NCBI GenBank assembly: GCA_965221265.1
Contig: OZ244873.1
Location: 74,013 to 138,012 of the forward strand
Reading direction: 5' to 3'
From: Longimicrobiales bacterium
Lineage (GTDB): Bacteria; Gemmatimonadota; Gemmatimonadetes; Longimicrobiales; Gaopeijiaceae
Length of the DNA: 64,000 nt
A program made the position numbers and the translations under genes. Positions 4,546 through 39,274 of the stretch are shown in pieces; within the stretch, counting starts at the first letter, position 1, and every line of letters begins with the position of its first letter. The notes below the pieces were generated by a model, which saw nothing but the letters and a program-made list of their open reading frames with translations, did no database searches and was not told the origin of the DNA.

Positions 4546-4589
4546 GGGATGCCCGGCAATATTCCGGGGTGGGCGCGGCCGGTGCAACC
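4546..4589. repeat. 44-bp repeated motif, copy 1 (GGGATGCCCGGCAATATTCCGGGGTGGGCGCGGCCGGTGCAACC) containing a CCCGG-N7-CCGGG hairpin
   Basis: Near-identical (42/44) copy at 6914..6957. Internal inverted repeat CCCGGcaatattCCGGG. Lies in the divergent intergenic region between the MBL gene and NHL paralog A. Confidence 0.7.
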
Positions 4590-4611
4590 GTGAATCGGTG
4601 CGGCGCTCAAG

Positions 4612-5666: not shown

Positions 5667-5688
5667 CACCCGTTCGCCAAGTGGTCCG

Positions 5689-6852
5689 GTGTCGGTGGCG
5701 GGGACAGCTGCGGGCGGCACCCGCCCGACCGCCTCATCGCTGGCGCCACTCCTCTTGGTTGCGATGGCCTGCACAACCCCGGACGATGCGACGGAGCCAA
5801 GGGAAATGGCGATTCCCTTGGCTCCGGTCGCGTCGTCCGAAGCACCCCTGAGCCGCAACACGCGCATCGCCCTCCCGACCGAGGAGACCGCATGCGTTAT
5901 TGACGACTACGAGGTGCGGGTCCATTGCATCCACCGCGACCAACGGACCTCCGCGATCTTCGGGCGACGGGGCGAGGGCCCCGGTGAGTTTCCCGAGTCG
6001 GGCAGCAGGAGGATCGTCCGGGGCCGCAACGCCACCATCGGTGTCGTCACGTCGAGCCGCTTGTCGGTATTCGACGTGTCCGGAGAATTGTTGTCCGACA
6101 TTGGATTGCCGCGGCGCCTAATGCCATCGGCACCGTTCGATTCCATTCTGTCGGGATACTATCTTCAGTTGGATTATCGGCCACCGTACAAGAGGGAATA
6201 TCGGGCAGTCGACTTGGATATCCGAAGTGGGGCGATTCTGTGGGAACGGGTCTACCCGCGCGACATGGCTGCCGGGGCCCGCTGTCCGGGCCCACCCCTG
6301 CCGGAGGGCGTCGCGCCTCCGCGAGGCTTGGCCACTGCAAGGTTCCTCTCCATCGGCGCATTCTTCATTCTGTGCCGTGGGCAATTGCTCTTTCTGGAGG
6401 ATCGAAGAGATGAGGGCGGGACGCTCATCCAAGCCCCCCTGTACGCCGACGTATTCCCCAGCCCGGAGGACGTGGAGCGATACGTGGAACTCTGCGATGC
6501 TCCGGCTCGCCGGCTCCTCGAAATACCCTGCGAGCCCGAGGAATACGCCCGCACGCCCGAGAACTACAGCGCCCAAACCTGGGTGGACGACCAAGACCGC
6601 CTTTGGGCACTCACCAATCGGGATCGCGAGTCGTTCTCTCATCTAGACGTCTTCATCGGCCTGGAGTTTGCGGGATCGGTTCGAGTGCGCCACCGCGCCG
6701 TGGGATTCGACGTGCTCGGTACGACGCTCGTCATCTTGGTGGACCACCCAGTGGGAACAAATGATCCCGACGGAATCCCGGACCGAGGCATCGACTGGTA
6801 CGACATCGGCGAATTGGAGTTGGGGGTGGGCGACCCAGGCCCTCATCGATAG
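5689..6852 (+). CDS. NHL-repeat lipoprotein, paralog B (about 45% identical to A)
   Basis: Same motif pattern (FGRRGEGPGEF, CRGQLLF, DWYDIGEL). Putative GTG start at 5689. The first ~220 aa of the listed ORF 5020.. are out-of-frame read-through of paralog A. Confidence 0.6.
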   Translation: MSVAGTAAGGTRPTASSLAPLLLVAMACTTPDDATEPREMAIPLAPVASSEAPLSRNTRIALPTEETACVIDDYEVRVHCIHRDQRTSAIFGRRGEGPGEFPESGSRRIVRGRNATIGVVTSSRLSVFDVSGELLSDIGLPRRLMPSAPFDSILSGYYLQLDYRPPYKREYRAVDLDIRSGAILWERVYPRDMAAGARCPGPPLPEGVAPPRGLATARFLSIGAFFILCRGQLLFLEDRRDEGGTLIQAPLYADVFPSPEDVERYVELCDAPARRLLEIPCEPEEYARTPENYSAQTWVDDQDRLWALTNRDRESFSHLDVFIGLEFAGSVRVRHRAVGFDVLGTTLVILVDHPVGTNDPDGIPDRGIDWYDIGELELGVGDPGPHR

Positions 6853-6913
6853 AGCGCGCCCAACGACGACACCCGAGGATGCCTTGGGCGTGGACGACCT
6901 CGCCTCGGAACAG

Positions 6914-6957
6914 GGGATGCCCGGCAATATTCCGGGGTGGGCGCGGCTGGTGCAACT
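6914..6957. repeat. 44-bp repeated motif, copy 2
   Basis: GGGATGCCCGGCAATATTCCGGGGTGGGCGCGGCTGGTGCAACT. Lies 60 bp downstream of paralog B and ~300 bp before the IS256 left end. Confidence 0.7.
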
Positions 6958-7253
6958 GAGGGTCGGTGGAATCCTCGCGGGTCCGTCGCGTGATCAAGGC
7001 GGCGCCGGGTCCCGGCGTGGCCGCTAGGTGGACTTGGAGACAGCGTGGCGGCGGCGGCTGTTGACAGGCTCGCCTTGGGTTCCTACGGTGACACGGATCC
7101 TCCGGTTGACAGGGTCTTCCGGTGAGACGAGCATCCACATCACGCGGGAGGCAACATGTCCGAGGCAACCCGCAGGTCCCTTCCCCTGAAGGCGTTCGCC
7201 TGCGCGACCCTATTCGCGATAGTTCGAGGTGGGACCAAGATCCCACCCGGCTT

Positions 7254-7261
7254 CTGATTGG
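7254..7261. repeat. 8-bp target-site duplication CTGATTGG (left)
   Basis: The identical octamer directly abuts both IS ends (7254-7261 and 8716-8723). 8 bp is the characteristic TSD length of IS256-family elements. Confidence 0.75.
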
Positions 7262-8715
7262 AGGCTGTCCCAACCGTAGTTGGAGGTTGCGGTGGCTCCC
7301 GTGAGTTTCATGCTACGGATGCGGCCTCGTTCTCGGCAACCGGGGCCGTGAGTTCGTCCAAGTGCGCCTTGAGGATCCACAGATCCCGGTAGCCCATGAT
7401 CCTGCGGTAGCTCCGCTCCGCGTCCATGAACGAGGCGGCCGCCCAACGGACCACCATCGACCCGTCCCGCCAGCGCGTGACGCGCCGCATCCGCTGGCGC
7501 ATGCCGGAGTGGGCGTTGTCGATCAGGTTCGTCGTGCCCAGGCAGCGGCGCAGCGGAGCCGTGAGCCCGAGCTCGCTTACGGTGAAGAGTTCGTCCAGCC
7601 CCTCGCGCAGGCTCCGCGCGGCCGCCGGATGCTCCCTGTCGACCCATGACGCGAATTGCTCGATCCTCGCCCTCCCATCCGTTCCGTCCAGCTTCCAAGC
7701 CGCCCGCAGCACCGCGCGCGCCTGGTCGTGCAGCGTCTTCGGCAAGTGCCCCAGCACATTGCGCATCTTGTGGTTCCGGCAGCGCTGCACCTTGCAGGCC
7801 TTCCCGAAGACCTGGTCGACCGCCTTACGCAGCGCCCTCGAGCCGTCGATGACGAACAACCGCCCCCGCCTCGGGTCCAAGCCGCGCTCGACGAGCTCCT
7901 CGAGCAGGGCCAGCGCGACCGCCGCGTTCTCGCTCGCACCCTCCCGGATGCCGAGAATCCGCTTGTTCCCCTCCGCGTCCACGCCAAGCGCCACCAGCAC
8001 GTGGTGGCCCGCGAACTGGACGCCGTCGAGGTACACGACCACAACGTCCCGGTCGTCCAGCCGCCGCTCGGCCAGCTCCCTCAACCGCTCGCCCGCCGCC
8101 TCGGCCGCCCGCCGGCTCACCGACGACCTGCTCACCCCCGCCGTCTCCGCCATCTCCCCGATCGCCTTCCCGTACGCCCGCGTGCTCACCCCGCGCATCA
8201 GCAGCTCCAGCATCCGGTCCCCGAGCCCCTCCGGACGCCGCAGCATCTCATAGGCCGGGATCGCGACCTCGCCCCCGCCCTTGCGCCTCAGCCGCGGCTT
8301 CTCGACCCGGACGGCTCTGTCGGACAGGTACACACGGCCCTTCTGCCGGCCGTGGTAGGCCACCCCGCCGCCGCGCCGCCTGCCCGGCTGCTTCGGCCCG
8401 GCCACGTCCGACGCGCCAATCTCCAGCACCGCCTCGATCGCCGCCCGCCCGATGACGTCGATGATCGTGTCCAGCGCGTCTCCCGCCCGCACGAACACAT
8501 CCGCCAGCGGCAGCAGATGCCGCCCTTCCCTCGCCAGCAGCTCCCGGGCCGCCCGCTTGTCGGCCCCGCCCCTTCCTTCGTACCTTTTCCTCATCGTGGT
8601 GGTCTCCCGTTGGGGTTGATTGCTCGCCTGATTCTAACCGGAATCAGGCCCCCGGGAGCCACCACGACCTCTTTTCCCCTTCGGAGAACCTCCAACTATT
8701 CCTGGGACACCCTCT
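7262..8715 (-). mobile_element. IS256-family insertion sequence, 1454 bp, apparently intact
   Basis: Imperfect terminal inverted repeats AGGCTGTCCCAACCGTAGTTGGAGGTT (left) versus the reverse complement of the right end AGAGGGTGTCCCAGGAATAGTTGGAGGTT. Single full-length transposase ORF, flanked by the 8-bp TSD. Confidence 0.85.
7308..8594 (-). CDS. IS256-family (Mutator-type) transposase
   Basis: 428 aa. Characteristic IS256 transposase motifs (YLDGVQFAGHHVLVALGVDAEGNKRILG; CRNHKMRNVL; TTNLIDNAHSGMRQRMRRV). Confidence 0.9.
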   Translation of the reverse strand: MRKRYEGRGGADKRAARELLAREGRHLLPLADVFVRAGDALDTIIDVIGRAAIEAVLEIGASDVAGPKQPGRRRGGGVAYHGRQKGRVYLSDRAVRVEKPRLRRKGGGEVAIPAYEMLRRPEGLGDRMLELLMRGVSTRAYGKAIGEMAETAGVSRSSVSRRAAEAAGERLRELAERRLDDRDVVVVYLDGVQFAGHHVLVALGVDAEGNKRILGIREGASENAAVALALLEELVERGLDPRRGRLFVIDGSRALRKAVDQVFGKACKVQRCRNHKMRNVLGHLPKTLHDQARAVLRAAWKLDGTDGRARIEQFASWVDREHPAAARSLREGLDELFTVSELGLTAPLRRCLGTTNLIDNAHSGMRQRMRRVTRWRDGSMVVRWAAASFMDAERSYRRIMGYRDLWILKAHLDELTAPVAENEAASVA

Positions 8716-8723
8716 CTGATTGG
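8716..8723. repeat. 8-bp target-site duplication CTGATTGG (right)
   Basis: See left copy. Confidence 0.75.
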
Positions 8724-8730
8724 ATTGGTT

Positions 8731-10008
8731 GTGCGAGTCGTTCAGCCCTTCGCCATCTGTCTCTCCCTCTCCATCTTGTCGACAGGTGACGTACGGGCGC
8801 AGATCGGCCAACGCGTATACGCGTGTGAACTGGATCGACGCCCCATTGAGGGCCTGCTCCTAGCTCACCGATCCGCCATGACCGATGCGGAGGCGCCCGT
8901 GGTGTCGTCGGCCCGTTTTGCCCCTGACGGCACCATCGTCGCAGTGGATCAATCGGCCAAACGCGTTTTGATACTTGATTCAGATCTCGACATTGTACGT
9001 GATGTCGGTCGCGCTGGACCTGGGCCTGGCGAATACGACGATCCGGTCGCAGCCGTCATGGATGATCAGGGACGAATATTTGTGGCCGACGGCGCCGGCG
9101 GCGTAACCACCGTGATCGTCTACGATCCAGACGGTTCGTTTGTTAGGCAGGATCAGCTGCCGCTGTATTTGTCCCCGCGCGCGTTGGCCACAGATGGCCA
9201 GTTGGTCTACGTTGCGGGTCAAGCTCTGTTCTTCACCGATCCCCCTCCTGACAACCGACCCTTGCTCGCCGCGTATGATCCCACAACCGGCGAAACTCAA
9301 GTCATGCTTGAACAGGATCCTGATTGGTTTGGCGAGCCGCCAGTGTACCGAAACTCGTTTGTCAACCTCATTCCAAGAGTTGATGCGCTCGGCAATATAT
9401 GTGTGGGATTTGTGGAAGGATACGAGATATGGAAAATCACGGGACCAAATGAATATGACGTGATCCTGCGCGGTTGCGTACCCGAAGGAGCCCTTGCCGT
9501 TTATGAAGCCGATGACGATGACCTGCTAATGGGCCAAGGGTCATCCAGTTTCCCTCCAGGACTTGATCTGAACTTTCGGCCTCCCCGACCTTCATATCAA
9601 ATATTGTCCGATTTCGCCGTGCTCTCGGATGGGTACATTGTTACCCGATCCGTGCTCTATGTTGATGAAGCCGGTAAGCGGAGTATGGAGTTGTTTTCTG
9701 GAGAAGGCACTCTTGAGCGAGCGTGGTCGCTGGGTCCCGGACGGCTGCTGACCGGATGGGGTGTCATGGACGGCAACGATCCATCGCGCCAATTCTCTTG
9801 GAACGCGAACAACGGCACATCCGTACTTGGCCAGTTTCCGTTCATTGACGCCGAAGCGGAAGCAGATCCGGATGCTGCCCCCTCACGGGAACGTGGCGGA
9901 TCCGATGGCAGAGGTAGGGTGATTGGTCTTTGGATCTCGGTCTTGCTTGGAGCGTTGGTCATTCTCGTTGCCGCGGGGGGCGCCCTCCACCGGCGTCGGC
10001 GGCTGTGA
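8731..10008 (+). CDS. NHL-like 6-bladed beta-propeller protein with signal peptide and C-terminal TM anchor; lower-GC (~55%) gene
   Basis: GTG 8731 (or TTG 8725) gives the signal peptide MRVVQPFAICLSLSILSTGDVRA. NHL-like GPGPGEYDDPVAAVMDDQGRIFVAD. C-terminal LWISVLLGALVILVAAGGALHRRRRL. GC is clearly below neighbours. Starts 9-15 bp after the IS256 right end. Confidence 0.65.
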   Translation: MRVVQPFAICLSLSILSTGDVRAQIGQRVYACELDRRPIEGLLLAHRSAMTDAEAPVVSSARFAPDGTIVAVDQSAKRVLILDSDLDIVRDVGRAGPGPGEYDDPVAAVMDDQGRIFVADGAGGVTTVIVYDPDGSFVRQDQLPLYLSPRALATDGQLVYVAGQALFFTDPPPDNRPLLAAYDPTTGETQVMLEQDPDWFGEPPVYRNSFVNLIPRVDALGNICVGFVEGYEIWKITGPNEYDVILRGCVPEGALAVYEADDDDLLMGQGSSSFPPGLDLNFRPPRPSYQILSDFAVLSDGYIVTRSVLYVDEAGKRSMELFSGEGTLERAWSLGPGRLLTGWGVMDGNDPSRQFSWNANNGTSVLGQFPFIDAEAEADPDAAPSRERGGSDGRGRVIGLWISVLLGALVILVAAGGALHRRRRL

Positions 10009-10018
10009 GGAGAGACGG

Positions 10019-11101
10019 ATGGTGAAAGGGGCGACCCCGGCCGTAACCGGACTCGCCATGGCGGGTCTGGTCGTGGCGTGCGCGGATGCGGGAACGGGCG
10101 GCGACATTGCTCTGGTGCCATTCGCCGAGACCACCGTGCCGTTGAGCGAGGGCTCCGCTATTCGCTTGGTGGACGAGCGGACCGTCTGCACAACGGAGTC
10201 GTACGAGTTCCGCGTCCACTGCACGGACGCGCGAGGGTTTCGGATTTCGTCCTTCGGGCGCCAAGGCGAGGGACCGGGGGAGTTTCGTAGTGGCGGCACC
10301 CTCCTTCGCGGACCCGACGGAACAATCGGTGTCGTCGACAGAGATCGAATGTCCATGTTCAGCGTAGCGGGCGCGCTCCTGTCGGAAGTACTTTTACCGG
10401 CAAGGCTAATCAACGGCTCCGCAACGTTTTCGTCGACGCTGACCGGTGGGTGGATGGATCCCGCTCAGGACGGGATGACGTTCCGTCATGCGGAACTGGA
10501 TGTGGCATCGGGGGAGGCCGTGTGGGACAGGGTCTACTCCCGGCGATACGAAACCGACGCTGGGTGCGAGGAGCTGGGCGATTGGCGAGGACTCATTGGA
10601 GGGCGATTCTCCCCGGCGCGAGGCGTGGTTTTTTCGCTATGCCGAGGGCAGCTGTTGTTCTTCGACCATCGCGACACCCCAACCGGTACGCTTGTCCGTG
10701 CCCCGGCGTATGTCCCCGAGCTCCCGAACGAGGAGGAGGTGCGGGCCTACGTGGAGGAAGCGGGCCCGTTCGCGATGGAGGACTGGTATCGGCGCCAACC
10801 CAAGGGGTACTTGCGCGGCGGTCAACTGGCGTTCGATGATGGGAGCAGGCTGTGGGCGCTCACGGACCGCGACCCGGGCGATGGCTTCTCCTACTTGGAT
10901 GTATACGAGGATTCGGCATTCCGAGGTACGATCCGCGTGCGTCACCACGCGCGGGGGATCGACCTGCTCGATTCGACGCTCGTGGTACTCGTCGACCGCC
11001 CGGTCGGGCCCCGCGACGCCGACGGAATCCCGGACCGCGGCATCGACTGGTACGACATCGGCGAACTGGAGTTCGGGGCCTCGCGCATTCCGACTCCGTA
11101 G
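10019..11101 (+). CDS. NHL-repeat lipoprotein, paralog A' (near-identical to paralog A)
   Basis: ATG at 10019 with lipoprotein signal MVKGATPAVTGLAMAGLVVACAD. The 3' ~550 nt are ~98% identical to paralog A; the 5' ~400 nt are ~88% identical. Confidence 0.75.
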   Translation: MVKGATPAVTGLAMAGLVVACADAGTGGDIALVPFAETTVPLSEGSAIRLVDERTVCTTESYEFRVHCTDARGFRISSFGRQGEGPGEFRSGGTLLRGPDGTIGVVDRDRMSMFSVAGALLSEVLLPARLINGSATFSSTLTGGWMDPAQDGMTFRHAELDVASGEAVWDRVYSRRYETDAGCEELGDWRGLIGGRFSPARGVVFSLCRGQLLFFDHRDTPTGTLVRAPAYVPELPNEEEVRAYVEEAGPFAMEDWYRRQPKGYLRGGQLAFDDGSRLWALTDRDPGDGFSYLDVYEDSAFRGTIRVRHHARGIDLLDSTLVVLVDRPVGPRDADGIPDRGIDWYDIGELEFGASRIPTP

Positions 11102-11312
11102 TCGGCGGTGCGTTGGCCAGCCACGCCGGCTCGCGCGGCCCGAGGCGCGAAGTGCCCCCCCAGCATCACCCGATGACCGCTTTGCCCACTCCCCCCGGCC
11201 GGCTTAACCTGTTCCGCACAGCCCGACGGTCGCCCTCGCCCGAGGAACGACCGACACGGCGCAATACCAAGGCCCCGGCTTGCAGCCCCCGGGCCTCCAG
11301 CGACGACGTCAC

Positions 11313-12614
11313 ATGCGGAAATCCATGACCCCAACAGGATCGAGACCACCAGCGTCCGCCCGGCCCGCGCGCTTCGGATCGGGCGCGCGCCTCCACGCCT
11401 CGGCCGCCTGCCTCCTCCTCGCGGCGTGCGCGGCCCCCGACGCCGTCGTCTCCGAGCTCGCTCTGGAGGAAGTGGCCGTGGAGGCCGCCGCCGGGGCACG
11501 CTTCCCCTCCCTCGAGGGCCACGGCGAGGCGGTCGTGCTGAGTTGGCTCGAACCGCACATGGAGGACGGCGAGGAAGTGTGGGCGCTGAAGGGCGCCCGC
11601 TATGACGACGGCGCGCTGGACAAGCCCTTCGAGGTGACCCGCTCGGGCGGCGACGTCTCGTTTTTCGTGAACTGGGCCGACTTCGCGGTGGTGTGGCCCG
11701 TGGGCGAGGGACGGCTGGCCGCGCACTGGCTCCGGCGGGGCGGGTCGTCCACCTACGACTACGGGGTGCGGGTCGCCTTCTCGGACGACGGCGGGCACTC
11801 GTGGAGCGAACCGTGGACGCCGCACGAGGACGCCACGCCCTCCGAGCACGGGTTCGTGTCGATGTTCGGGCTGGGAGGCGGGAAAGCGGGGATGGTGTGG
11901 CTGGATGGCCGCCGCTTCTTCGAGGCGGATGGCTCGCGCGCGGCCCACCCCCGCATGACCCTGCGCTATCGGACGGCCGGCGCGGATGGGACCGTGACCG
12001 CCGAGGTCGAGCTCGACGACCGCATCTGCGACTGCTGCCAGACCGACGCGGCCATGACCTCCGGCGGGCCCATCGTGGTCTACCGCGACCGCACCGCGGA
12101 CGAGGTGCGCGACATCTCGGCGGGGCGTTTCGTGGACGGGAAGTGGACGGGCGGGGCCCCCGTGCACGACGACGGCTGGGTGATCCCGGGCTGCCCGGTG
12201 AACGGTCCTTCCGTGGCGGCCGTCGGCGATGCGGTGGTGGTGGCGTGGTTCACCGGCGCCAACGACACGCCCAAGGTGCGGGCCGCCTTCTCCCGGGACG
12301 CGGGCGCGACCTTCGGCCCGCCCGTCACGCTCGACCTGGGCAGCCCGGTGGGGCGGGTCGCGGCGGTGATGCCCGAACCCGAGACGGCGCTGGTGACGTG
12401 GCTGGAGGACGGACGCCTGCTCGTGCGCGCCGTCACATCCGACGGGCACCTCGGTCGGGTGCGCCAGGTGGCCACCTCGTCCGACGCGCGCGCCAGCGGC
12501 TTCCCGGCCATGATCGTGGACGCCGCGGACCGCGTGGTCTTCGCGCAAACGGTGGTCGACGAGGGCATCCGCGTGCTGCGGTCGCGGGAACCGTGGACGG
12601 CTTTGCGCGATTGA
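11313..12614 (+). CDS. BNR/Asp-box repeat (sialidase-like, exo-alpha-sialidase fold) lipoprotein
   Basis: Asp-box SDDGGHSW. Signal/lipobox ACLLLAACAAP. Start ATG 11313 (alternative 11325). Confidence 0.7.
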   Translation: MRKSMTPTGSRPPASARPARFGSGARLHASAACLLLAACAAPDAVVSELALEEVAVEAAAGARFPSLEGHGEAVVLSWLEPHMEDGEEVWALKGARYDDGALDKPFEVTRSGGDVSFFVNWADFAVVWPVGEGRLAAHWLRRGGSSTYDYGVRVAFSDDGGHSWSEPWTPHEDATPSEHGFVSMFGLGGGKAGMVWLDGRRFFEADGSRAAHPRMTLRYRTAGADGTVTAEVELDDRICDCCQTDAAMTSGGPIVVYRDRTADEVRDISAGRFVDGKWTGGAPVHDDGWVIPGCPVNGPSVAAVGDAVVVAWFTGANDTPKVRAAFSRDAGATFGPPVTLDLGSPVGRVAAVMPEPETALVTWLEDGRLLVRAVTSDGHLGRVRQVATSSDARASGFPAMIVDAADRVVFAQTVVDEGIRVLRSREPWTALRD

Positions 12615-12647
12615 TGACGCGCGACCCCGCAAGGGTGCGGGCCAGCA

Positions 12648-12762
12648 GTCCGTGGACGAATCCGCCCGAGCACCGAGAGCGGCGGTGCGCCGGGCTGGCA
12701 GGGCGCCTTGAAGGCTCGGGTGCAGCGTTACCGGAACGAAGGGCAACGCCGAGCTTAGCGAA
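12648..12762 (+). repeat. REP/MITE-like intergenic repeat, full copy (~115 bp)
   Basis: gtccgtggacgaatccgcccgagcaccgagagcggcggtgcgccgggctggcagggcgccttgaaggctcgggtgcagcg... The same element occurs in inverse orientation at 17878-17990, and partially at the other sites listed below. Confidence 0.7.
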
Positions 12763-21751: not shown

Positions 21752-21862
21752 GGGGGCTTATCGTTCGGGGATGAACCCGCTCGAGCACTGGGAGCGGTGC
21801 CGGGCCGCCGGGAGCATGATCGGCGTCTGGTCCGATCAACTCCGCAGCCCAAGGAGCTGGAG

Positions 21863-22069
21863 ATGAGTGGTGAAGTCGACGAGAAGTCTTTCGATGTGAT
21901 GACGTGGCTGCGAGCGACCCGAGACGAGATTAACGAGCAGATCGCGGACATGTCCGGCGAGGAGCTCCGGGAGTGGCTTGCCCGAGGTCCCTCGGACGTG
22001 TCACGCGGGAGATTGTACGACCGTGCGGGCACGGATCCAGAGGCGGATGACGCTCGCTCCACGGGCTGA
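21863..22069 (+). CDS. hypothetical small acidic protein
   Basis: ATG with an AAGGAG RBS. 68 aa, no recognisable family. Lies at the left margin of the low-GC island. Confidence 0.35.
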   Translation: MSGEVDEKSFDVMTWLRATRDEINEQIADMSGEELREWLARGPSDVSRGRLYDRAGTDPEADDARSTG

Positions 22070-22142: not shown

Positions 22143-23882
22143 TCACACTGCCTGCGACAATTGCTCCAGCGCATCGTTGACAGCGACCAGCTCGTTCGCA
22201 ATTCTTTCACACATGTCTTCGAAATGCTTTGAGAAGGTCCCGAATTCCTCCAATGCGTTGCGTTTCAGCGTTTCCGCTTCACTTCCGCCCGCGTGGGCGG
22301 CCACCTTGTTCCTGATTTTGTGCGCCACCTCCAAACCCTCAAGTCGACTTGACTCACCATCGGTGAACGTCACGTCAGATGCGCTGATCGCCTTCTTCAG
22401 CAACATGATGCTCTGGTCTTTCTTTCCACACTCTACACGACAGCTCTCAAGAAGCCGTCGAATGGGGCGAGCACAGAACCCTTCGACAACTGCCTTATCC
22501 AACGCCTGGAACGCGCTGGCCCACTCGTGGCGACTGTCGCTCCGCGGAACTCGCAGGGCATCCAACACCATTTGATCGCGAACCTTCCACCAGCGCGGCC
22601 CTTCCCGATTCCATCTACGTAAAATATGTCTTATTCGTGACAGCGGCGGATCCTTGGATGGATATTCTCCGTGGAAGTCGGGCTTGACCACGTCATCCGG
22701 TAGACCTGCTTTCGGCTTCTCATTGAAACCCTTCCAGTAATACTGTTCCGAATCGGGTAAATTACGAAGGTCGCAAATGTATGCGAACACTTGGTCCGCC
22801 TCATTCACACCATATCGAAGCGACCATGTTGCCCGACAGCTGATGTCTCTATCTTTCACGGTGTATTTGTCGGGGTCAGCCGTGTATCTGTGCAATACTT
22901 CCGGCCTAAAGAACGCTGGAGATGTCTCAAATGGCCGTGTCGTTCCTTTAGAATTGAAGTAGTTTACAGTAGCATCGGGGCGAGTCGAGATCTCTGCAAC
23001 CATTCCATTGCGGAAGTCGTCTGCCCAAAATGCCACGCCCTCTTCAGTACCTCCCCTCTTCCACCTCTTTCGCTGACGCGCCCAAGTCTTTGCACGTGGC
23101 GATTCGTACACAAACTGATAGCCGCGCGCATGGGAACCGCACCCAGGGAAAACGCTCTGCTCGAACACTAAATCTGGGTTCGAATCGTTAACAATACGCG
23201 GGGCGGAGCCACGCCACATGCCGGAGACGCGATCCGGATGCACCAACGTAAAGTCGAACAACCGCACAAGTCGTGAGTCCGAGGCGGCCAAGTACTCTTC
23301 AAGATCCCTCCGCGCGAAGGACACCAGCGTGACGCCTTGATCTCGAACCGACACGGAGATGATCGGGTCGAAATCACCGTTCTCGTCAAAGCGACAGTAA
23401 GCGCGACGCTCCGGACGCCAATGACAATCCGACAAGTGAATGTATGCTTGCGAAGCTTCCATATAGTAGGAGTCGTCCGTCTTCAAGCCCACAAAGTCGC
23501 GTGGATAAACCAAGCGGGTAGCAGTCCGAAGCAATTTGGATCCACCAAATGTAGAGCCACACTCGATGGTAATGGGACCATCGTCATCGGAAATCGAGTA
23601 GCCAACGCCGTAACCGAGACTGGAGCGCCACTGTAGCAGATCGGTCTGGTCAACCTCCGCGAGTTGGGGACGAGCAACAATGGCCGTGTCGACCCAGAAA
23701 CTGTTGGCGTACGCGCAGACTATCAGCTCACTCTCCGTGGAATTCTGGGCAATCACGTCTATGTGCGACCGTGCCGTGAGCCATTCGTCAAAGGAAGCGT
23801 CGTCTGTTGGGCGCGCGACAGCCGACCGGATTCGATTCAGCAAATCCTGATGGGATGGGGTCGGGTGGTGGCGCTTGGCCAT
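22143..23882 (-). CDS. uncharacterised 579-aa protein in the low-GC island; C-terminal helical segment carries an RNKVAAH (R-x5-H) HEPN-like motif
   Basis: Clean 1.74-kb ORF with GC ~50% against a ~70% background. No Walker motifs or other recognisable catalytic signatures except ...LEVAHKIRNKVAAHAGGSEAETLKRN near the C-terminus. Confidence 0.7.
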   Translation of the reverse strand: MAKRHHPTPSHQDLLNRIRSAVARPTDDASFDEWLTARSHIDVIAQNSTESELIVCAYANSFWVDTAIVARPQLAEVDQTDLLQWRSSLGYGVGYSISDDDGPITIECGSTFGGSKLLRTATRLVYPRDFVGLKTDDSYYMEASQAYIHLSDCHWRPERRAYCRFDENGDFDPIISVSVRDQGVTLVSFARRDLEEYLAASDSRLVRLFDFTLVHPDRVSGMWRGSAPRIVNDSNPDLVFEQSVFPGCGSHARGYQFVYESPRAKTWARQRKRWKRGGTEEGVAFWADDFRNGMVAEISTRPDATVNYFNSKGTTRPFETSPAFFRPEVLHRYTADPDKYTVKDRDISCRATWSLRYGVNEADQVFAYICDLRNLPDSEQYYWKGFNEKPKAGLPDDVVKPDFHGEYPSKDPPLSRIRHILRRWNREGPRWWKVRDQMVLDALRVPRSDSRHEWASAFQALDKAVVEGFCARPIRRLLESCRVECGKKDQSIMLLKKAISASDVTFTDGESSRLEGLEVAHKIRNKVAAHAGGSEAETLKRNALEEFGTFSKHFEDMCERIANELVAVNDALEQLSQAV

Positions 23883-24230
23883 CGTCTCGATCTCCTTGAG
23901 AGCGGGGTGGCAGTGGACTTGGCACGGATCGGCAAGGGAGGCTCGCGGGATCAGGAGAATGGCATCTTACCTCATTTCCAGTTCTCATGCCATCCCGTGG
24001 CCTGTTCGCCGGAATTGATTGGCGAACGAGGCATTGGCCCAGCTTGGGTAATCGGCGACCAGTTTCCATCCGCGACGCTCGGGGAGAACGGCATATCCCC
24101 TCGCGGGCACGCGAGCTCGTCTTGAAGGGGATTCGGCCGACTTCCGGCAGGCCAAACGCGGAGTCACGCGCCGGCGCTTCAGGAAAGGGCGACGAGGCGG
24201 GACGCCGGCGCCGAACCCGCTCCGAACCTG

Positions 24231-24690
24231 GTGGGGCGGGATTTCTCGGCCGGAGGCCCCGACTGGCTGTGGGTCGCCGACATCGCGCAGGGTCACACCG
24301 GTGCGGGCTGGCTGTACCTCGCCGTGGTGCTCGATTCGTGGAGCCGGCGGATCGTCGGCTGGGCGATGGCGTCCCGGATGCCGGCCAAGCTGGTCGCGGA
24401 CGCGCTCGCGATGGCGGTCTCCAACCGCCAGCCGACGGGTTCGGTGATCCATCATTCCGACTAAGGCTCGCAGTACACGTCGCTGGCCTTCGGGGAGCGC
24501 TGTCCCACGGCGGGAATCGTGCGGTCGATGGGCTCGGTGGGCGACGCGTACGACAACTTGATGTGCGAGAGCTTCTTCGCGACGCTGGAGTGTGAACTCC
24601 TGAACCGGCGTCGGTTCGCCACGGTGGCCGGTGCGCGCCGCGGGAGGCGGCGGCCAAGCCACCGGATGCGGGTGAGCTCGCAGCGGACCG
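24231..24690 (+). pseudogene. IS3-family transposase (OrfB/rve integrase core) remnant with an in-frame TAA
   Basis: DWLWVADIAQGHTGAGWLYLAVVLDSWSRRIVGWA...HSD*GSQYTS...SVGDAYDNLMCESFFATLECELL. Truncated at the 5' end with a stop codon inside the HSDxGSQY motif. No terminal inverted repeats recognised. Confidence 0.7.
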
Positions 24691-24906
24691 CGCCCGAGCC
24701 GACGCACTCCACAACCGAACCGAGCCCGCATCCGGCCGAATTCGAGAGGGCGAGGGAGTCGGTACGATGACGTTCGGGCACGAGCGTCAGGCCATCGAGC
24801 ACGCGGAACCCCTTCCTACCTCCTGCTCACACTATCTGCGGGGGGGATTCGTCCTTACCTTGGGTCGAGGATCAGCCATCCATCGCGACAACACGGGTAG
24901 CCCATC

Positions 24907-26460
24907 ATGATCGAGAGGCGCCTCGAGCCCCTATGGCTTCGGCTCCAAGGCAAGAAGCCGCACATGCCGCATTTCCTGGACGAGATCCACCTTCACGGCA
25001 TCCGTGGGCTGTCCGATCTTCGGGTCGGACTCGACTACCCCGTCAGCGTGATCGCCGGAGGGAATGCGACCGGCAAATCCACCGTTCTCTTCGCGGCGGC
25101 CTGCGCATACGATGTACCGGGCGCTGGCGTGCGGGACTTTCGTCCGTCCAGCCTGTTCCCCGACTTCAGGCCGAAGCGGGGTAGGCATCGAGACGGAAGA
25201 GAGGAAGTCATCCTACTTCTGGAGTACTCCACGCCCCGCGGGAAGCGGTCGATGCAGTGGAAGCGGGGCAAGGCTTGGTCGAAGAGCTTCTTGAACCGCA
25301 AGAACGCCGCACAGCCCACACGGCAAGTCTATCTGCGCACCATGAGCAATCTCAGCAACCCGTCGGAGGTGCGCGGCGTGCTGAGCATGTCGCGCGTGTC
25401 AACGGAACTGGAGGAGCGCCCGCTGACTCCCTCCCAGATCAGGTTCGCTCATCAAGTGCTGCCGTTTCGCTACTCGGAGGTGGTGCAGCTGTCGAGCGGA
25501 AACAAGAATCTTCTGTTCGCCACTCAGGACGAGGGTGGACCGGAGTACTCGGAACTGCACATGGCGGCGGGAGAGAGGGCCGTCCTGCGCCTTTCGCAGG
25601 AAATCGCCCGCCTCAACGGCGCGCTGGTGCTTATTGACGAGGTGGAAGCCGGCCTACACCCTTGGGTTCAGCAGCTTCTTATGCTGCACATTCAGGAGCT
25701 GGCGCTGCGCCGAGACCTCCAGGTCATCGTCACGTCGCACAGCCCGGTAGTTCTCGACTCGGTGCCTCCCCATGGGCGTGTGCTGCTCGATCGCGATTCA
25801 GACGGTCGCGTGACCGTCCAGCCGCCTCATCGCGACTTGGTGCAGGATGCTCTGTACGGTCGCGCGAGCCGAGTGCTCAACTGCCTATGCGAGGACGAAG
25901 CGGCTGAAGCCATCCTGCAGGGCGTGTTCGACACTCTGCTACCCCGCTTGATGATCCGTCGCGAGTCTGTGCGGATCGGACGCGACACCGGTGCGTCGGA
26001 ATTCCCCACCCACGCGGCCGCTTTTCGGAAGTTCGGCCAGATCGACGGCTTCGTGTTCGTGCTCGACGGCGACGCCGTGGGCAAAGGGATCGATGACAAG
26101 ATCCGCATGAACGCCGGCATGGACGTCCCCATTGTGTTCCTGCCCGGCAGCGAGGCCCCGGAGGCTTGGGTATGGGGGGTGTTGCATCGGCGTGCGGGCG
26201 AGATCGGACCACTGCTCGGCGCCAACACCGGAGAGTTCGTCAAGTGGCTCAACCACGCCGACGCCGTGTTTGCTGCAGCTCAGGCATCGTCGTCCGAGAT
26301 CGCCAAGGAGAAGCTCCTCGAGCTCTCGGGCGTGCTCGGGCGCGACGTCTCCCAGGTCTGTAGAGTGGCCGGGCGACTCGAGGCGGAACGGCCCGAGAGC
26401 GACATCCAGCCCATGGTTGAGGCTCTGGAGGAGGTGCTGAACCGGCGGCGGGCGGACTGA
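24907..26460 (+). CDS. OLD/AAA15-family ABC-type ATPase with a C-terminal TOPRIM/DUF4435-like (DxD) nuclease-like domain
   Basis: Walker A GGNATGKST, ABC signature-like LSSGNKNL, Walker B LVLIDEVEAGLHP, H-loop VIVTSHSP. C-terminal LCEDEAAEAIL ... FVFVLDGDAVGKG is consistent with a TOPRIM Glu ... DxD. GC is lower than the flanks. Confidence 0.75.
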   Translation: MIERRLEPLWLRLQGKKPHMPHFLDEIHLHGIRGLSDLRVGLDYPVSVIAGGNATGKSTVLFAAACAYDVPGAGVRDFRPSSLFPDFRPKRGRHRDGREEVILLLEYSTPRGKRSMQWKRGKAWSKSFLNRKNAAQPTRQVYLRTMSNLSNPSEVRGVLSMSRVSTELEERPLTPSQIRFAHQVLPFRYSEVVQLSSGNKNLLFATQDEGGPEYSELHMAAGERAVLRLSQEIARLNGALVLIDEVEAGLHPWVQQLLMLHIQELALRRDLQVIVTSHSPVVLDSVPPHGRVLLDRDSDGRVTVQPPHRDLVQDALYGRASRVLNCLCEDEAAEAILQGVFDTLLPRLMIRRESVRIGRDTGASEFPTHAAAFRKFGQIDGFVFVLDGDAVGKGIDDKIRMNAGMDVPIVFLPGSEAPEAWVWGVLHRRAGEIGPLLGANTGEFVKWLNHADAVFAAAQASSSEIAKEKLLELSGVLGRDVSQVCRVAGRLEAERPESDIQPMVEALEEVLNRRRAD

Positions 26461-26652: not shown

Positions 26653-29600
26653 CTACCGCACCCTCATGGCCCACACCGCGATGTGACCGGGCATGGAGCT
26701 TCCGCCCGGCGTTGTGACCTTGATGCTGGTCGGGCTGAGCGCGCCGGCCGGCGTCCAGTGGAAGTACAGGGACGAACCCGCCCGCACCCGCCGGCCCGTC
26801 AGGCGCGGGACGGTCGCGGACGAGGTGTAGGGCCGGAGGCGGGCGTTTTCGGGGAGATTGCCGAAGATGTCAGCAAGATCCCAGGTGCTCATGCCGTACG
26901 CCTGCCCGCCCCGTAGGTCGAGCCACAGGGACAGGTAGAAGTCGGCCAGAATCTGTTCGGCGTTCCATGCCTTGCCGGGGCTGACGTCGACCAGGGAGGC
27001 GAATCCCGTCGCCGACGACTGTGTCAGGCGCCGCATCATCGCGCGCTCTCCTCCCGGGTAGTCTCCGCCCCAACGGTCCAAGGCGTAGCGGTAGACCATG
27101 GAGGGGACGCCGTAGATCGCGCGATCCCCGAGCAAGCACGGACCCGAATTGCCATCATCCGGCTGACCGATCCAGCTACACTCCTCGGGGGCGCCAGTAA
27201 TCCTCCCGGCGCCGTCGCCACGCCAATCCCATCCGAAGAACTCGGCCAGATCGACGATCCAGTCCTGGTACCACGCTTGACTCTCAGCCGACTGCTTGAA
27301 CTCGGCCCAGCCCATCTCCCCACCTGATCCGTGCCCGAAGAGCCGGTAAGCGACGAGCTGTTCGGCCAGCGTGGCGCCACCCTCCCACTCCCAGGTAGCC
27401 TTGCCTCCGCCACCGCCGGCACTGCCGTAGATGTGGGCATCGGCCTGAATCAAGTGCGTCACTTCGTGGGCGACCAGCGACGGGTAATACTCCAGCAACG
27501 TCTGCTTGCCGACTGGATCGCCCACCACGCCTTGCGGATCCGGCACCTGCCCATAGAAGATCTCTGCCTGGTTGCTCGTCGCGCACCGCGCGCTCGGATA
27601 GAGATCCGCCGGCCAAACCCATCCGCCCACATTGTTCGCCCGATTCACTTCCTTGGTCATCAGCACCAGAAACCGGCCGTTGCCGTCCACGTCCGACAAT
27701 CCGCCGAAGTAGTCGTCGTGCACCTCCTTGCCGTTGGTCGAGTAGAACGCGTCCAAGCCCGCCAACTCCGCATCGGAGAACGTCTCCGACGGGTTGTCGA
27801 GGTCATCCAGCCAGATCGACGGGCCTCCGACGTGCCGCACCACCGCCCGCACCTGCCGCGCACTTGTGCACGTTGCCTCGAAGTCCGCATAGAGCGTCAA
27901 CGTGTCGCCCACCTGGAGCTCGCGCCGTGCGAACGCCGCCGCCACTCGAGCCGAGCGTCCCAACGTGCGCAGCAGGGCCTGGTTGCGCGCCATCATCTCG
28001 TTGTGCGCCCGTGCCCGCGCTTGGCGCAGCGTGTCGTCGACAAGCGGCCATTCCTGCGCACCGGCGCCGGATGGGACTGCGGTCCGCATGCCTCCTCCGG
28101 CGAACGGCGCCATGGGCCTGAACGGCCCATCCGCGAACGCGGCCATCGCTTCCCCGCCCTGCGATGACGCCATCCCCGAACCCACGTCCCCGGCTCCATC
28201 CGCGACCACGACGCGCCCGCGCTCCGCCCCGACCACCGTCGCGTCTCCGGGCGTGCCCGCCAACGTGACGCCCGTGAGCGACGCGGCGTTCTCCGAGACG
28301 GAAACCACGCCGATCATGAACTCGCCCCCGGAGGCGCTCGCCGGGAGGTGCAGGCACCCGTTCCCCTTGGACGTCGAGCGATACCAGCCCGGATCCAGCT
28401 CCAGATCCTCCCGGGTGCCCGGGGTCACGCCCACGGTGCGCGCTTCGGCGCTGGCGCCCACCGACACCCGCAGCTCCTCTCTGCGCGGCGGCAGGCAGTC
28501 CGCCAGGGGCACGATGATGGACAGGCTGGTCGCACTAGCCGACACGACCCGGGCGCCACGCCCGCCAACGGTGACTTGGTTCTGGGAAGCCGTCGTCGAG
28601 AACCCGGAGCCGAAGACGGTCGCGGGCGCCCCCTCCAGCAGCACGGCCGGGTCGGTTCCGGTGATCGTGACCCCTCCTTGGCTCCCCCGGGTCACCGTGA
28701 CGGCGAACACGATGCGCGCGCTCAGGCCGTCCGCGTCGGTGGCGGTGAAGGTCACCGTCGCCGCGCCCGGTGACACACCAACCACTCCCAACACCTCGTT
28801 CTCGACGACGGCCGTCAGGGCGACCGCCGTGTTCGAGCTGGTCGCGGCGAAGGTGAGCGAATCACCGTCCGGGTCGCTGAAATGGTCCAATCCGCGCCAA
28901 TTGGCGGATGCACCGGCCGCGAGCGTGAGGGCCCGGATGGTGTCCGCAACCTCCGGCGCCCGGTTGGGCACGGTCACCTCGAAGCTCTGCTCGGCGCTCA
29001 GGCCACCGGGGTCGTTGGCGGTCACGGTCACGGTCGTGGTCCCGCGTCCCTCGCCGGTCACGGTCACAACGCGGTCCGCCACGGCTACGCTCGCCACGCG
29101 AACGTTCGCGCTCGCCACCGCGTAGCGGAGGTCGTCCCCGTCGGCGTCCTCGAAGTAGGGCGACACGTCGATGGCCACCTCCTGTCCGGCCGCCAGCGTC
29201 TGGTCGGGCAGGGATCCAACGGGGCCGGGCGCCCGGTTGGGCACGGTCACCGGGAAGCCCTGCTGAGCCGCCAAGCCACCGGGGTCGGTCGCCGTCACCG
29301 TGACGGTGGCCTCGCCGGCCGCCACCGCCTCGATGGTCACGACGCCGCCCTCAACCGACACCCTCGCCACGCCCGCATTGGAGCTGGCCGCCGTGAAGGC
29401 GAGCGTGTCCCCGTCGGGGTCGCTGAAGTAGCCCGCCAGCTCCACCTCGGCGCTCTCGGCCACGAAAACCGTCTGCGTCGGCACTTCGCCCACCGCCTCC
29501 GGCGCCCGGTTGGGCACGGTCACCTCGAAGCTCTGCTCGGCGCTCAGGCCGCCGGGGTCGGTCGCGTTAACCGTGACGGTCGCCTCGCCCGAGCCGACCC

Positions 29601-30126
29601 CCTGAATGGCGAGCACACCGCCCGCCACCGACACGCTGGCCACCCCCGCGTCCGAGCTCTCCGTCGTGTAGGTGAGCACATCCCCGTCGGGGTCGCTGAA
29701 GTAGCCCGCCAGCTCCACCTCGGCGTTTCCACCCACGAAGACCGTCTGAGGCGACATGGTGCCGACCGCCTCCGGCGCCCGGTTGGGCACGGTCACCTGA
29801 AAGCTCTGCTGCGCCGACAGGCCACCGGGATCGCGCGCGGTCACCGTCACGGTTGCCGTCCCTTGGGCCACCGCCGTCACCGTTACCACGCCGCCGGACA
29901 CCGCGACCGAAGCCACGCCCGCGTTCGAGCTGCCCGCCGTGAAGGTCAGGACTCCCCCGTCCGGGTCGCTGAAATTGGCCGACACGTCGACGGTCGCCGT
30001 TTGCCCGACCGGAACCGTCTGGGCCGGAATCGACCCGGTCGCCAAGGGCGCCTGGTTCGGCGGAGGGGCGGTGGGCGCGCTGTCGCCGCATGCCGCAACC
30101 CATGTGACCGCCCCCAGCAGCACCAT
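26653..30126 (-). CDS. large secreted zinc metalloprotease-like protein (HExxH) with about six N-terminal cadherin/Ig-like tandem domains; lipoprotein
   Basis: Lipobox VTWVAACGD. Six ~95-aa repeats (FSDPDGDxLTYTAxSSxAGVASVxVxGGVxTxxxVxxGxATVTVTATDPGGLSAxQSFxVTVPNRAPE). C-terminal domain carries LVAHEVTHLIQ. Start ATG 30126 with an AAGAAGG RBS. Confidence 0.8.
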   Translation of the reverse strand: MVLLGAVTWVAACGDSAPTAPPPNQAPLATGSIPAQTVPVGQTATVDVSANFSDPDGGVLTFTAGSSNAGVASVAVSGGVVTVTAVAQGTATVTVTARDPGGLSAQQSFQVTVPNRAPEAVGTMSPQTVFVGGNAEVELAGYFSDPDGDVLTYTTESSDAGVASVSVAGGVLAIQGVGSGEATVTVNATDPGGLSAEQSFEVTVPNRAPEAVGEVPTQTVFVAESAEVELAGYFSDPDGDTLAFTAASSNAGVARVSVEGGVVTIEAVAAGEATVTVTATDPGGLAAQQGFPVTVPNRAPGPVGSLPDQTLAAGQEVAIDVSPYFEDADGDDLRYAVASANVRVASVAVADRVVTVTGEGRGTTTVTVTANDPGGLSAEQSFEVTVPNRAPEVADTIRALTLAAGASANWRGLDHFSDPDGDSLTFAATSSNTAVALTAVVENEVLGVVGVSPGAATVTFTATDADGLSARIVFAVTVTRGSQGGVTITGTDPAVLLEGAPATVFGSGFSTTASQNQVTVGGRGARVVSASATSLSIIVPLADCLPPRREELRVSVGASAEARTVGVTPGTREDLELDPGWYRSTSKGNGCLHLPASASGGEFMIGVVSVSENAASLTGVTLAGTPGDATVVGAERGRVVVADGAGDVGSGMASSQGGEAMAAFADGPFRPMAPFAGGGMRTAVPSGAGAQEWPLVDDTLRQARARAHNEMMARNQALLRTLGRSARVAAAFARRELQVGDTLTLYADFEATCTSARQVRAVVRHVGGPSIWLDDLDNPSETFSDAELAGLDAFYSTNGKEVHDDYFGGLSDVDGNGRFLVLMTKEVNRANNVGGWVWPADLYPSARCATSNQAEIFYGQVPDPQGVVGDPVGKQTLLEYYPSLVAHEVTHLIQADAHIYGSAGGGGGKATWEWEGGATLAEQLVAYRLFGHGSGGEMGWAEFKQSAESQAWYQDWIVDLAEFFGWDWRGDGAGRITGAPEECSWIGQPDDGNSGPCLLGDRAIYGVPSMVYRYALDRWGGDYPGGERAMMRRLTQSSATGFASLVDVSPGKAWNAEQILADFYLSLWLDLRGGQAYGMSTWDLADIFGNLPENARLRPYTSSATVPRLTGRRVRAGSSLYFHWTPAGALSPTSIKVTTPGGSSMPGHIAVWAMRVR

Positions 30127-30464
30127 AACGCGGGACAATGCCCTTCTTATTTGCCGACACCGCAACGGTACATTAATCACCCTACTCCTCCTTTCCAGGA
30201 TTGATGGATTCCATATACGACTTACACAATGTAAAGCCACGACTATTCGATGATCGCTGTCAGGGTTCGAGCCCCGCCGCGATCACGACGTCCAATCAGG
30301 CGCGCCGTCTCCCCAAGGCAGCAATTGTAACGCGCTCGTCAAATCGGTGTGGAAAAACGCCGAATTGGGCCTGCCTCGCGATCCGGGCGTTGAAGGCCTC
30401 AAGGCCCACCAAGACCGACTTCGCCTGACGCCGGTGGGGCCGCGAGCCGCCCCCCCCTCCCCTC

Positions 30465-38943: not shown

Positions 38944-39066
38944 AACTCATCGAGACCGGCTGAGGGACTGGCCCTGTGAAGCCGGGGCAACCGGATCGTT
39001 CTCCCTGGAGAGCGATCAGCGGTGCCAACTCCCGCGGGTTCCGGAAATGGAATCCGAGAGATGAGT
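38944..39066 (+). promoter_or_regulatory. SAM-I (S-box) riboswitch
   Basis: cTCATCgAGAccggcTGAGGGAcTGGCCCtgTGAaGCCggGGCAACC ... GGTGCCAAcTCC ... GAGAGATGAG. The P1 halves CUCAUC/GAUGAG, the GGGA...GGCCC pseudoknot/P2 elements, and the GCAACC and GGUGCCAA consensus blocks are all present. Confidence 0.8.
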
Positions 39067-39274
39067 GCCTCGGTCGGCTCCTCGCCGCCCGGCGGTTCCA
39101 GGGGTTGGCATCGCGTCCAACCCGTGGAGAGCCAGCATGCGAGCGACCACCGCCCCACCCCGCCCGACCCCCGCGCCGCCGTTCCTTCCCGCCGCCAACG
39201 CGCGCGCTTCCAATGACGGTCGGCCTCCGGCCGCCCCCGCGCTGCCACCCACCGCCCGTCGCGGGACCGTCTCC

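Follow-up and report, generated by a model that had tools for sequence, protein, structure and literature searches.

The 64 kb stretch of contig OZ244873.1 from a Longimicrobiales bacterium, called the window throughout (64,000 nucleotides, with positions counted from its first letter), carries two genes of interest in a segment of reduced GC content at 21.8-26.5 kb. One codes for an ABC ATPase fused to a TOPRIM-like domain, the other for a protein of 579 amino acids (aa) with a C-terminal HEPN-like motif, here called X579. A first-pass annotation of the sequence had proposed that the two genes jointly form a novel defence system. We find that they are two independent stand-alone modules and not one system. 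The central features of the segment are the following:

22143-23882, reverse strand: the X579 gene, full length and intact (579 aa), a member of a large uncharacterised family of ~570-aa proteins

24225-24641, forward strand: a decayed transposase fragment of the IS3 family, located between the X579 and ATPase-TOPRIM genes and retaining the C-terminal rve core only

24907-26460, forward strand: an ABC ATPase-TOPRIM gene (517 aa) of the HEC-04/IbfA type (OLD-like, stand-alone)

Both open reading frames (ORFs) are found exactly where they had been placed, and both are real genes, each having hundreds to thousands of full-length homologues. The motifs quoted for them are all present in the translations (GGNATGKST, LVLIDEVEAGLHP, VIVTSHSP, LCEDEAAEAIL, FVFVLDGDAVGKG, and RNKVAAH). 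The decayed transposase, which had also been recognised, matches Pfam rve (4.1e-22) and rve_3 (1.4e-4); it has lost its 5' half and is interrupted by an in-frame TAA codon at 24462-24464, its one-frame translation reading DWLWVADI...GWLYLAVVLD...HHSD*GSQYTS...GDAYDNLMCESFFATLECELL.

The islet of low GC is real but the dip is not uniform. Against a mean of 70.1% for the window, only the trough at 22.0-24.0 kb goes down to 52-58% GC; a shallower one at 24.75-26.5 kb shows 62-66%, and a stretch of 69-70%, the IS3 remnant, lies between both. GC at third codon positions (GC3) is 0.61 for the X579 gene, the overall GC of which is 54.9%, 0.725 for a small ORF at 21797-22069, and 0.79 for the ATPase-TOPRIM gene, compared to 0.85-0.94 for native flanking genes (SDR, ilvE, and the gene for a 1195-aa HExxH protein). 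The acquired segment seems to consist of at least two pieces that were ameliorated separately. The earlier reading as a horizontally acquired defence islet is reasonable: the region 21.8-26.5 kb would be a small composite islet of horizontally acquired DNA which holds two single-gene modules. Their adjacency would reflect a hotspot where accessory genes have accumulated, and the IS3 remnant is a probable trace of this traffic. We consider it fairly probable, without regarding it as firm, that the islet combines an independent ATPase-TOPRIM module of the HEC-04 type with X579 as a sensor-effector defence factor.

X579 belongs to a family with at least 919 homologues in a database clustered at 90% identity, nearly all of which are 550-590 aa long and aligned with 96-100% coverage. 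The initial statement that the protein has no detectable family holds for curated libraries but not beyond them: the family comprises 2,025 clusters (50% identity) at E<=1e-3 and 560 at E<=1e-30. The window protein has no match in Pfam, PADLOC, NCBIfam, or PHROG, Pfam is equally empty for 28 relatives, and the family as such is contained neither in current Pfam nor in PADLOC v2.0.0. A family profile retrieved nothing from PDB sequences at E<=10. A literature search by accession returned nothing on X579, and neither X579-like peptides nor accessions were found in the partial supplementary files of Payne et al. (2024). The distribution is patchy (245 matches in 185,579 species-representative genomes) and extends over more than 10 phyla, including Gemmatimonadota, Acidobacteriota, Chloroflexota, Nitrospirota, Planctomycetota, Melainabacteria, Latescibacterota, Acidimicrobiia, and others, and also Alpha-, Gamma-, and Deltaproteobacteria. 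X579 is rare on plasmids and was found on only 2 IMG/VR contigs. A phage origin is not supported, as none of 50,697 phage genomes has a match.

The predicted structure of X579 (pLDDT 79) has a helical cap (aa 1-50), a beta-rich part (aa ~51-395), and an all-helical part (aa 396-578). Together with the conservation pattern, the following subregions can be distinguished:

23043-23882, reverse strand: N-terminal helical cap and beta-rich domain (aa 1-280), more variable, the candidate sensor region

22698-23042, reverse strand: middle domain (aa ~281-395), the most conserved part

22146-22697, reverse strand: C-terminal all-helical, HEPN-like domain (aa ~396-579)

22293-22313, reverse strand: RNKVAAH (aa 524-530), an R-x5-H motif with the putative HEPN catalytic Arg and His

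The motif is of the HEPN type, as proposed from the outset, and is conserved; the helical domain in which it lies may correspond to HEPN structures. R524, K526, and H530 do not vary among 28 diverse members, and RNKVAAH fits the pattern Rx4-6H with the usual polar residue after the Arg. In an actinobacterial subfamily, R-S-x-x-x-A-H is invariant. The X579 profile and the profile of this subfamily are homologous over their full length (515 columns, hhalign 99.9%, 20% identity). A domain swap had been considered for Rhodococcus plasmids, where the tblastn match is confined to aa 321-570; it was rejected because of this full-length homology, which identifies the plasmid proteins as part of a divergent branch. 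Foldseek returned nothing for X579 at E<=1e-3, the best match being Avs3 (E 0.05). No P-loop or NACHT/AAA Pfam match was obtained for the window protein or for the 28 members, which indicates that X579 has no STAND NTPase domain.

The genomic setting of X579 was analysed in loci fetched from other genomes (numbered with the prefix L). Relative to its flanking DNA, the gene has a reduced GC content in 64 of 71 loci (median difference -8.1 points; Wilcoxon p 2e-11). Three loci (L029, L043, and L072) have it inside an Hma system, where it is co-directional and flanked by HmaA (E 1e-164 to 1e-168) and HmaB (E 1e-70 to 1e-118), with HmaC following in L029. These systems are complete or near-complete (L029:3990-16900; L043:3228-14387; L072:1321-12954). 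HmaA is a helicase and HmaB a DUF1156 methylase; the latter is apparently split into two ORFs in L043. The same gap in L072 holds a second embedded gene, which codes for a 566-aa NTPase (AAA_22/AAA_35, no PADLOC match), and an ORF of 178 aa.

Restriction-modification (RM) systems form a second recurrent setting. The order HsdR, HsdM(S), X579, all on the same strand, is found in L011, L018, L025, and L037, so that X579 occupies the 3' end of a type I RM system. In L127 (positions 4392-12656), X579 starts 5 nt past the stop codon of a fused HsdM-S gene with HsdR upstream; a TIR/SEFIR gene overlaps the 3' end of X579, and several HigBA/HicB modules flank the region. Type IIG/Eco57I-like enzymes are encoded directly upstream of X579 in five loci (L010, L015, L064, L128, and L129), and a type IIG enzyme is encoded directly downstream, on the opposite strand, in L126. 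On the Pseudomonas aeruginosa megaplasmid pWTJH6, X579 lies beside the CBASS genes for SAVED, CD-NTase, Cap2, and Cap3. Large RM or Hma genes occur in the fetched flanks of at least 20 of 80 X579 loci, and scans of the nearest neighbours add DrmMI- and mad2-type methylases, S subunits, integrases, Schlafen, and AbiV. All nine loci that were annotated in detail have toxin-antitoxin or defence genes within ~4 kb of X579.

No partner gene emerged from the X579 loci. With respect to an antitoxin or a type III RNA partner, there is no conserved small ORF and there are no recurrent flanking repeat arrays (TRF). A cognate MNT operon was found neither as a conserved neighbour in the 80 loci nor in the window. 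The MNT genes which occur near X579 in L117, L118, L126, and L128 represent separate HepT/MNT modules or fragments thereof. In two unrelated loci (L118:9494-9908 and L128:7409-7901), an NTP_transf_2 MNT gene and an ORF stub of 31-55 aa are located directly upstream of X579. A truncated HepT is one possible reading of the stub; X579 either inserts beside HepT/MNT modules or is found there by coincidence, the genomes being rich in MNT genes.

Most likely, X579 would serve in defence or abortive infection as a single protein that combines sensor and effector. Recognition of a trigger would fall to the beta-rich N-terminal region together with the conserved middle domain; phage proteins, nucleic acids, and the state of an RM or Hma complex encoded nearby are all conceivable cues. 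The RNase effector would be the HEPN-like bundle at the C-terminus, in which Arg and His are invariant; it would probably act as a dimer, as other HEPN enzymes do, and once unleashed might lead to growth arrest or abortive infection. Copies at the end of type I or type IIG RM operons, or inside Hma operons, would serve as a PrrC-like second line of defence. That X579 is a defence gene at all we hold to be probable, with moderate confidence. The assignment of the HEPN-type Arg and His as the catalytic effector site is plausible and we lean on it tentatively, a little short of an even call. The full reading is possible but distinctly less secure: an undescribed, widespread single-gene family of anti-phage proteins that joins a novel Avs3-like sensor element to a HEPN RNase and often acts as a PrrC-like back-up. 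X579 represents a family so far unannotated, a candidate for defence with new sensor domains but a familiar type of effector and familiar logic.

Several results weigh against this interpretation of X579. None of the HEPN models in Pfam, NCBIfam, or PADLOC matches the protein, no Pfam HEPN model matches any of the 28 members, and the hhalign comparison of the C-terminal profile with the HEPN domain of HEC-08 gave a probability of 0.1%, which means no similarity. Conservation per sequence window is 0.72-0.87 for residues 281-400 but 0.59 for the HEPN-like region; the key activity may therefore lie in the middle domain. As to the genomic context, the window copy has no RM or Hma neighbour, many neighbours elsewhere are ordinary metabolic genes, the RM-linked loci partly share RM genes of 50-90% identity and are perhaps one island lineage, and the counts of defence contexts are raw, without a genome-wide background.

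The main rival to a HEPN effector is an activity of the middle domain itself, with the HEPN-like bundle as a regulatory or oligomerisation scaffold, or with the R..H pair binding a ligand. Apart from the peak of conservation and the lack of a matching HEPN sequence profile, it can be said in its favour that the motifs of this domain (SPAFFRPEVL..KY..D.DKY...C..W.L..VN.AGQV.AYIC.LR.LP..EQ.YW..FNE.PK.) persist in the actinobacterial branch at 20% identity. However, most of the conserved positions hold aromatic or structural residues (W, Y, F, P, L, C) and form no recognisable catalytic constellation, while the R and H of R-x5-H are among the few polar residues which are invariant across both subfamilies. 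The middle domain has no solved relative and none in Pfam. We regard an effector in the middle domain as unlikely.

Still less likely is that X579 has no anti-phage function and is a selfish or addiction toxin, or serves some other accessory function, and merely hitch-hikes in variable regions rich in RM and toxin-antitoxin genes. Its rarity in the species-representative genomes would fit, as would the integrases (4 of 76) and transposases among its nearest neighbours and the many metabolic genes already mentioned. Against this stand the lack of a conserved antitoxin-like neighbour and of a flanking repeat array, the size and multidomain organisation of the protein, which are unlike those of classical toxin-antitoxin toxins, and its operonic placement within Hma systems and behind RM genes, a signature of "guilt by embedding". 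Embedding in Hma systems is how HEC-01 to HEC-09 were found, with a high rate of validation (Payne et al., 2024, bioRxiv 10.1101/2024.01.29.577857).

A defence role of X579 is the reading that we prefer. A family which has no annotation anywhere, an invariant Arg/His pair of the HEPN type, and repeated placement in Hma and RM operons is a concrete lead. If validated, X579 would add a single-protein abortive-infection system of the RNase type, and a new sensor fold, to bacterial immunity.

The second gene could be assigned to a described kind of system. HEC-04 ("Hma-embedded candidate" 04) is a single gene which codes for an ABC ATPase fused to an OLD-like TOPRIM domain; it protects Escherichia coli against T4, T5, and other phages, and defence is lost in the mutants K62A and E319A/D375A/D377A (Payne et al., 2024, bioRxiv 10.1101/2024.01.29.577857). 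The gene ibfA of IncI1 plasmids is a homologue of HEC-04 (PMC12111858). The following motifs were located in the window protein:

25054-25083, forward strand: Walker A, AGGNATGKST, with K57, aligning with GPNGSGKSS (K62) of HEC-04

25561-25644, forward strand: ABC signature-like MAAGERAVLRL (aa 219-229) and Walker B ALVLIDEV (aa 239-246)

25864-26196, forward strand: TOPRIM-like domain (aa ~320-430), with E329 at 25891-25893 and D387-G-D389 at 26065-26073

In PADLOC, the best model for the ATPase-TOPRIM protein is HEC-04 (E 3.9e-35, 119 bits; aa 19-433 aligned to positions 22-411 of 494, or 79%), which exceeds all other models by more than 16 orders of magnitude. Next come the retron model ATPase-Toprim_I-B (1.6e-18, aa 188-397) and the models for PtuA, AriA, and GajA. 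The enterobacterial (E. coli) plasmid homologue scores comparably against the HEC-04 model (3.9e-32). Pfam matches are AAA_21, AAA_15, and, weakly, DUF2813, and PHROG 3940 is matched at 2e-35. With the tested E. coli HEC-04 protein, the sequence of which was taken from Table S2 of bioRxiv 10.1101/2024.01.29.577857, BLASTP aligns 326 columns at 26% identity (E 8e-26). The top Foldseek match is a full-length Class 1 OLD nuclease from Thermus scotoductus (6p74, E 1.3e-12), further matches being GajA, PtuA (retron PtuA), and retron Eco8. The combination of an ABC ATPase with an OLD-type TOPRIM domain, as initially described, is upheld by these searches.

The residues expected of such a protein are in place. 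Among 30 homologues, the Walker A segment G51-T59 including K57, residues A220-R224 and D244/E247, and the TOPRIM residues E329, D330, D387, G388, and D389 are invariant. A complete ATPase had correctly been recognised, but its ABC signature is more likely MAAGERAVLRL than LSSGNKNL, which had been named. MAAGERAVLRL aligns to HFGAGESSIIRM of HEC-04, the segment through Walker B reading HFGAGESSIIRM...LVLIEEIE there, and it is this signature/Walker B segment that PDB profile matches to PtuA, AriA, and OLD cover. E329 aligns with E319 of HEC-04 by BLASTP, and D387-G-D389 is the counterpart of D375-G-D377, judged by the motif and its distance from the Glu (58 vs. 56 residues).

At least 1,913 homologues of the ATPase-TOPRIM protein exist. 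All of the closest 120 show 64-70% identity and lengths of 515-518 aa, and the protein belongs to this tight clade from environmental metagenome-assembled genomes. Their settings vary: the contexts in L120, L131, and L132 are wholly different. One copy of 70% identity lies in a defence island with DISARM-like genes, ThsB-TIR, Schlafen, and nSTAND, another near a Type ISP enzyme, and a third among unremarkable genes. On some metagenome contigs, two paralogous copies occur within a few kb (L100:1131-2714 and 4494-5414), the copies of L086 and L111 share contig JGI24795J26692_1000973, and one member of such a pair is sometimes frameshifted or truncated (L110-L113).

Judged by its sequence, the ATPase-TOPRIM protein is a divergent, OLD-like member of the already described single-gene HEC-04/IbfA kind. 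The claim that no described system corresponds to this locus does not survive for this gene. By analogy with HEC-04 and OLD, we infer that the ATPase head would sense an infection cue and then license a metal-dependent (two-metal) TOPRIM nuclease, with an outcome that may be abortive or protective. This assignment is tempered by three points: no Pfam TOPRIM family matches at E<=1, the AlphaFold (AF2) model is mediocre (pLDDT 70), and identity to the tested protein does not exceed the 26% given above. As such a member, the gene extends the validated HEC-04 family into high-GC environmental phyla.

The single-gene nature of HEC-04 bears directly on the proposed pairing: a protein which matches it therefore needs no partner. 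Co-occurrence in other genomes had been named beforehand as a test of a two-gene system, and neither family was found to adjoin the other. When the ATPase-TOPRIM protein was compared by tblastn to 80 genome loci with an X579 relative, one weak, generic match resulted (E 9e-4), and none resulted from 12 further X579 loci. Conversely, X579 has no tblastn match in 35 metagenome and 4 genome loci with an ATPase-TOPRIM gene. These sets include the closest homologues of either gene (67-70% identity). All-vs-all clustering of ORFs revealed no family which adjoins X579 in more than 6 of 80 loci, and the neighbours of ATPase-TOPRIM genes in the 39 loci are not shared beyond five near-identical contigs. 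For either gene, no neighbouring family exceeds ~8% of the loci.

A novel two-gene system, with the ATPase-TOPRIM protein as sensor or nuclease and X579 as its RNase partner, is very improbable because this reciprocal co-occurrence is absent. In its favour, the genes lie ~1 kb apart and are divergently oriented within one low-GC islet, and ABC-ATPase defences often have a separate effector (Gabija, Septu, PARIS, HEC-01 to HEC-03). Also, an unrelated AAA_15/21 ATPase and DUF3226 pair adjoins X579 in L126. However, the IS3 remnant separates the two genes in the window, their GC3 values differ (0.61 vs. 0.79), and the family of the ATPase, in which the effector is fused, has been validated as a single-gene system. 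The pair in L126 (positions 7785-9539, reverse strand) corresponds to the PADLOC candidate PDC-M38A/B (5.6e-78 and 1.2e-39), and its ATPase is unrelated to the ATPase-TOPRIM protein of the window by tblastn. An OLD-plus-HEPN system would have meant a new defence architecture, which is not supported. That two genes lie side by side in a low-GC islet is no evidence that they form a system, and reciprocal co-occurrence settled the question quickly.

Known multi-gene systems were also considered for the ATPase-TOPRIM gene, the neighbours of which in the window are the IS3 remnant, X579, and the convergent gene for the 1195-aa HExxH protein. Gabija was rejected (no GajB UvrD-like helicase adjoins, and GajA models reach only 1.5e-14), as were Septu (no PtuB HNH ORF in the islet or in the 39 homologous loci), retron type I-B (no adjoining ORF of the size of a reverse transcriptase and no Rfam retron RNA in the window), and PARIS (partner gene absent). 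That the gene is an orphaned effector of one of these systems, its partner having been lost at the IS insertion, is hardly credible: the secondary PADLOC matches and the decayed IS directly upstream would fit, but HEC-04 far outscores these models, no reverse transcriptase, helicase, or HNH ORF is nearby, and the architecture of ~516 aa stands alone in 39 of 39 loci.

The surroundings of the two modules include a small ORF and a large flanking gene:

21797-22069, forward strand: small ORF (orf90), 90 aa when started at GTG and ~68 aa from the ATG at 21863, located between ilvE and the 3' end of the X579 gene

26653-30240, reverse strand: 1195-aa flanking protein with a HEVTH (HExxH) region, convergent with the ATPase-TOPRIM gene

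The upstream flank is ilvE, as had been annotated (E 5e-89 to the E. coli branched-chain aminotransferase, 1i1k). The small orf90 is convergent with X579 and intermediate in GC (64.5%); it has no Pfam match and no homologue in any of the X579 or ATPase-TOPRIM loci that were fetched. It probably belongs to the acquired segment, of which it may be a remnant, and is not a conserved partner. On the other side, the label "secreted metalloprotease" could not be retained for the 1195-aa protein: no search confirmed it, only the HExxH motif is visible, and there is no PDB sequence match at E<=1e-3. Ahead of HEVTH, this protein has about six tandem repeats of ~95 aa (NRAPE.VG...YFSDPDGD...ATDPGGLSA.QSF.VTVP).

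Elsewhere in the window, a SAM riboswitch was identified at 38944-39067 on the forward strand (Rfam RF00162, 81.7 bits, E 1e-17); it is the sole family detected by Rfam at the gathering threshold in the 64 kb, and no tRNA genes were found. A 428-aa ORF at 7308-8594 (reverse strand) reads as an IS256-family transposase by motif only (...QRCRNHKMRNV...). It is adjoined by a second GC dip (57% at 9-10 kb), which spans two paralogous ORFs of ~400 aa (8725-11101, forward strand) with predicted signal or transmembrane segments. The region 7308-11101 is a probable further accessory insertion.

Comparison with known systems places the ATPase-TOPRIM protein closest to HEC-04/IbfA. Like these, it is one polypeptide of ~490-520 aa with an N-terminal ABC ATPase, a C-terminal OLD-type TOPRIM domain, and no partner; the Walker A Lys, the TOPRIM Glu, and the DxD motif are at matching positions, and members are found in defence islands. 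Unlike HEC-04, the window copy lies outside any Hma system, and it is distant in sequence (~26% identity to the tested protein, 23% to the enterobacterial plasmid homologue in the ATPase part); it is a candidate for defence by homology. Class 1 OLD proteins (P2 Old, Thermus scotoductus OLD 6P74) share the stand-alone ATPase and TOPRIM organisation and a similar length, and DUF2813, which matches weakly, represents the N-terminal region of OLD-like YbjD proteins. In contrast to this, sequence similarity to OLD is confined to the ABC motifs (6p74 E 3e-4, aa 239-304), the PADLOC model "Old" is not among the top matches, and TM-scores are low (0.31), partly due to the modest quality of the model. 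GajA, PtuA, AriA/AriB, and the retron I-B ATPase belong to the same ABC ATPase clade, and a TOPRIM nuclease also occurs in GajA, AriAB, and retron I-B. Gabija, Septu, PARIS, and the retron need, respectively, GajB, PtuB, a separate or fused DUF4435 AriB, or a reverse transcriptase with a noncoding RNA, none of which was found in the window or in the homologous loci.

X579 was compared to HEPN proteins with a role in defence or toxicity (HEC-08, AbiD/F, AbiJ, AbiU2, AbiV, HepS, and HEPN toxins such as SO_3166 [5YEP]). Its HEPN-like domain is C-terminal, behind ~390 aa of novel domains, whereas HEC-08 has an N-terminal DUF3644 HEPN domain and Zn-ribbons. Unlike in HEPN-MNT toxin-antitoxin systems, no MNT antitoxin is conserved beside X579. 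The similarity to SeAvs3 (PDB 8DGC), a terminase sensor of the STAND type, is limited to one domain-sized segment. PrrC and RloC are anticodon nucleases of the HEPN type which are encoded inside type I RM loci and are released when a phage inhibits the RM enzyme. X579 differs from both in that it lacks an ABC ATPase or P-loop domain and is not recognisably related to either in sequence, and the window copy, unlike PrrC, adjoins no RM system. Like PrrC, however, relatives of X579 in several loci are found within type I RM, type IIG, or Hma operons or co-directionally at their ends, and by analogy X579 may share the logic of PrrC.

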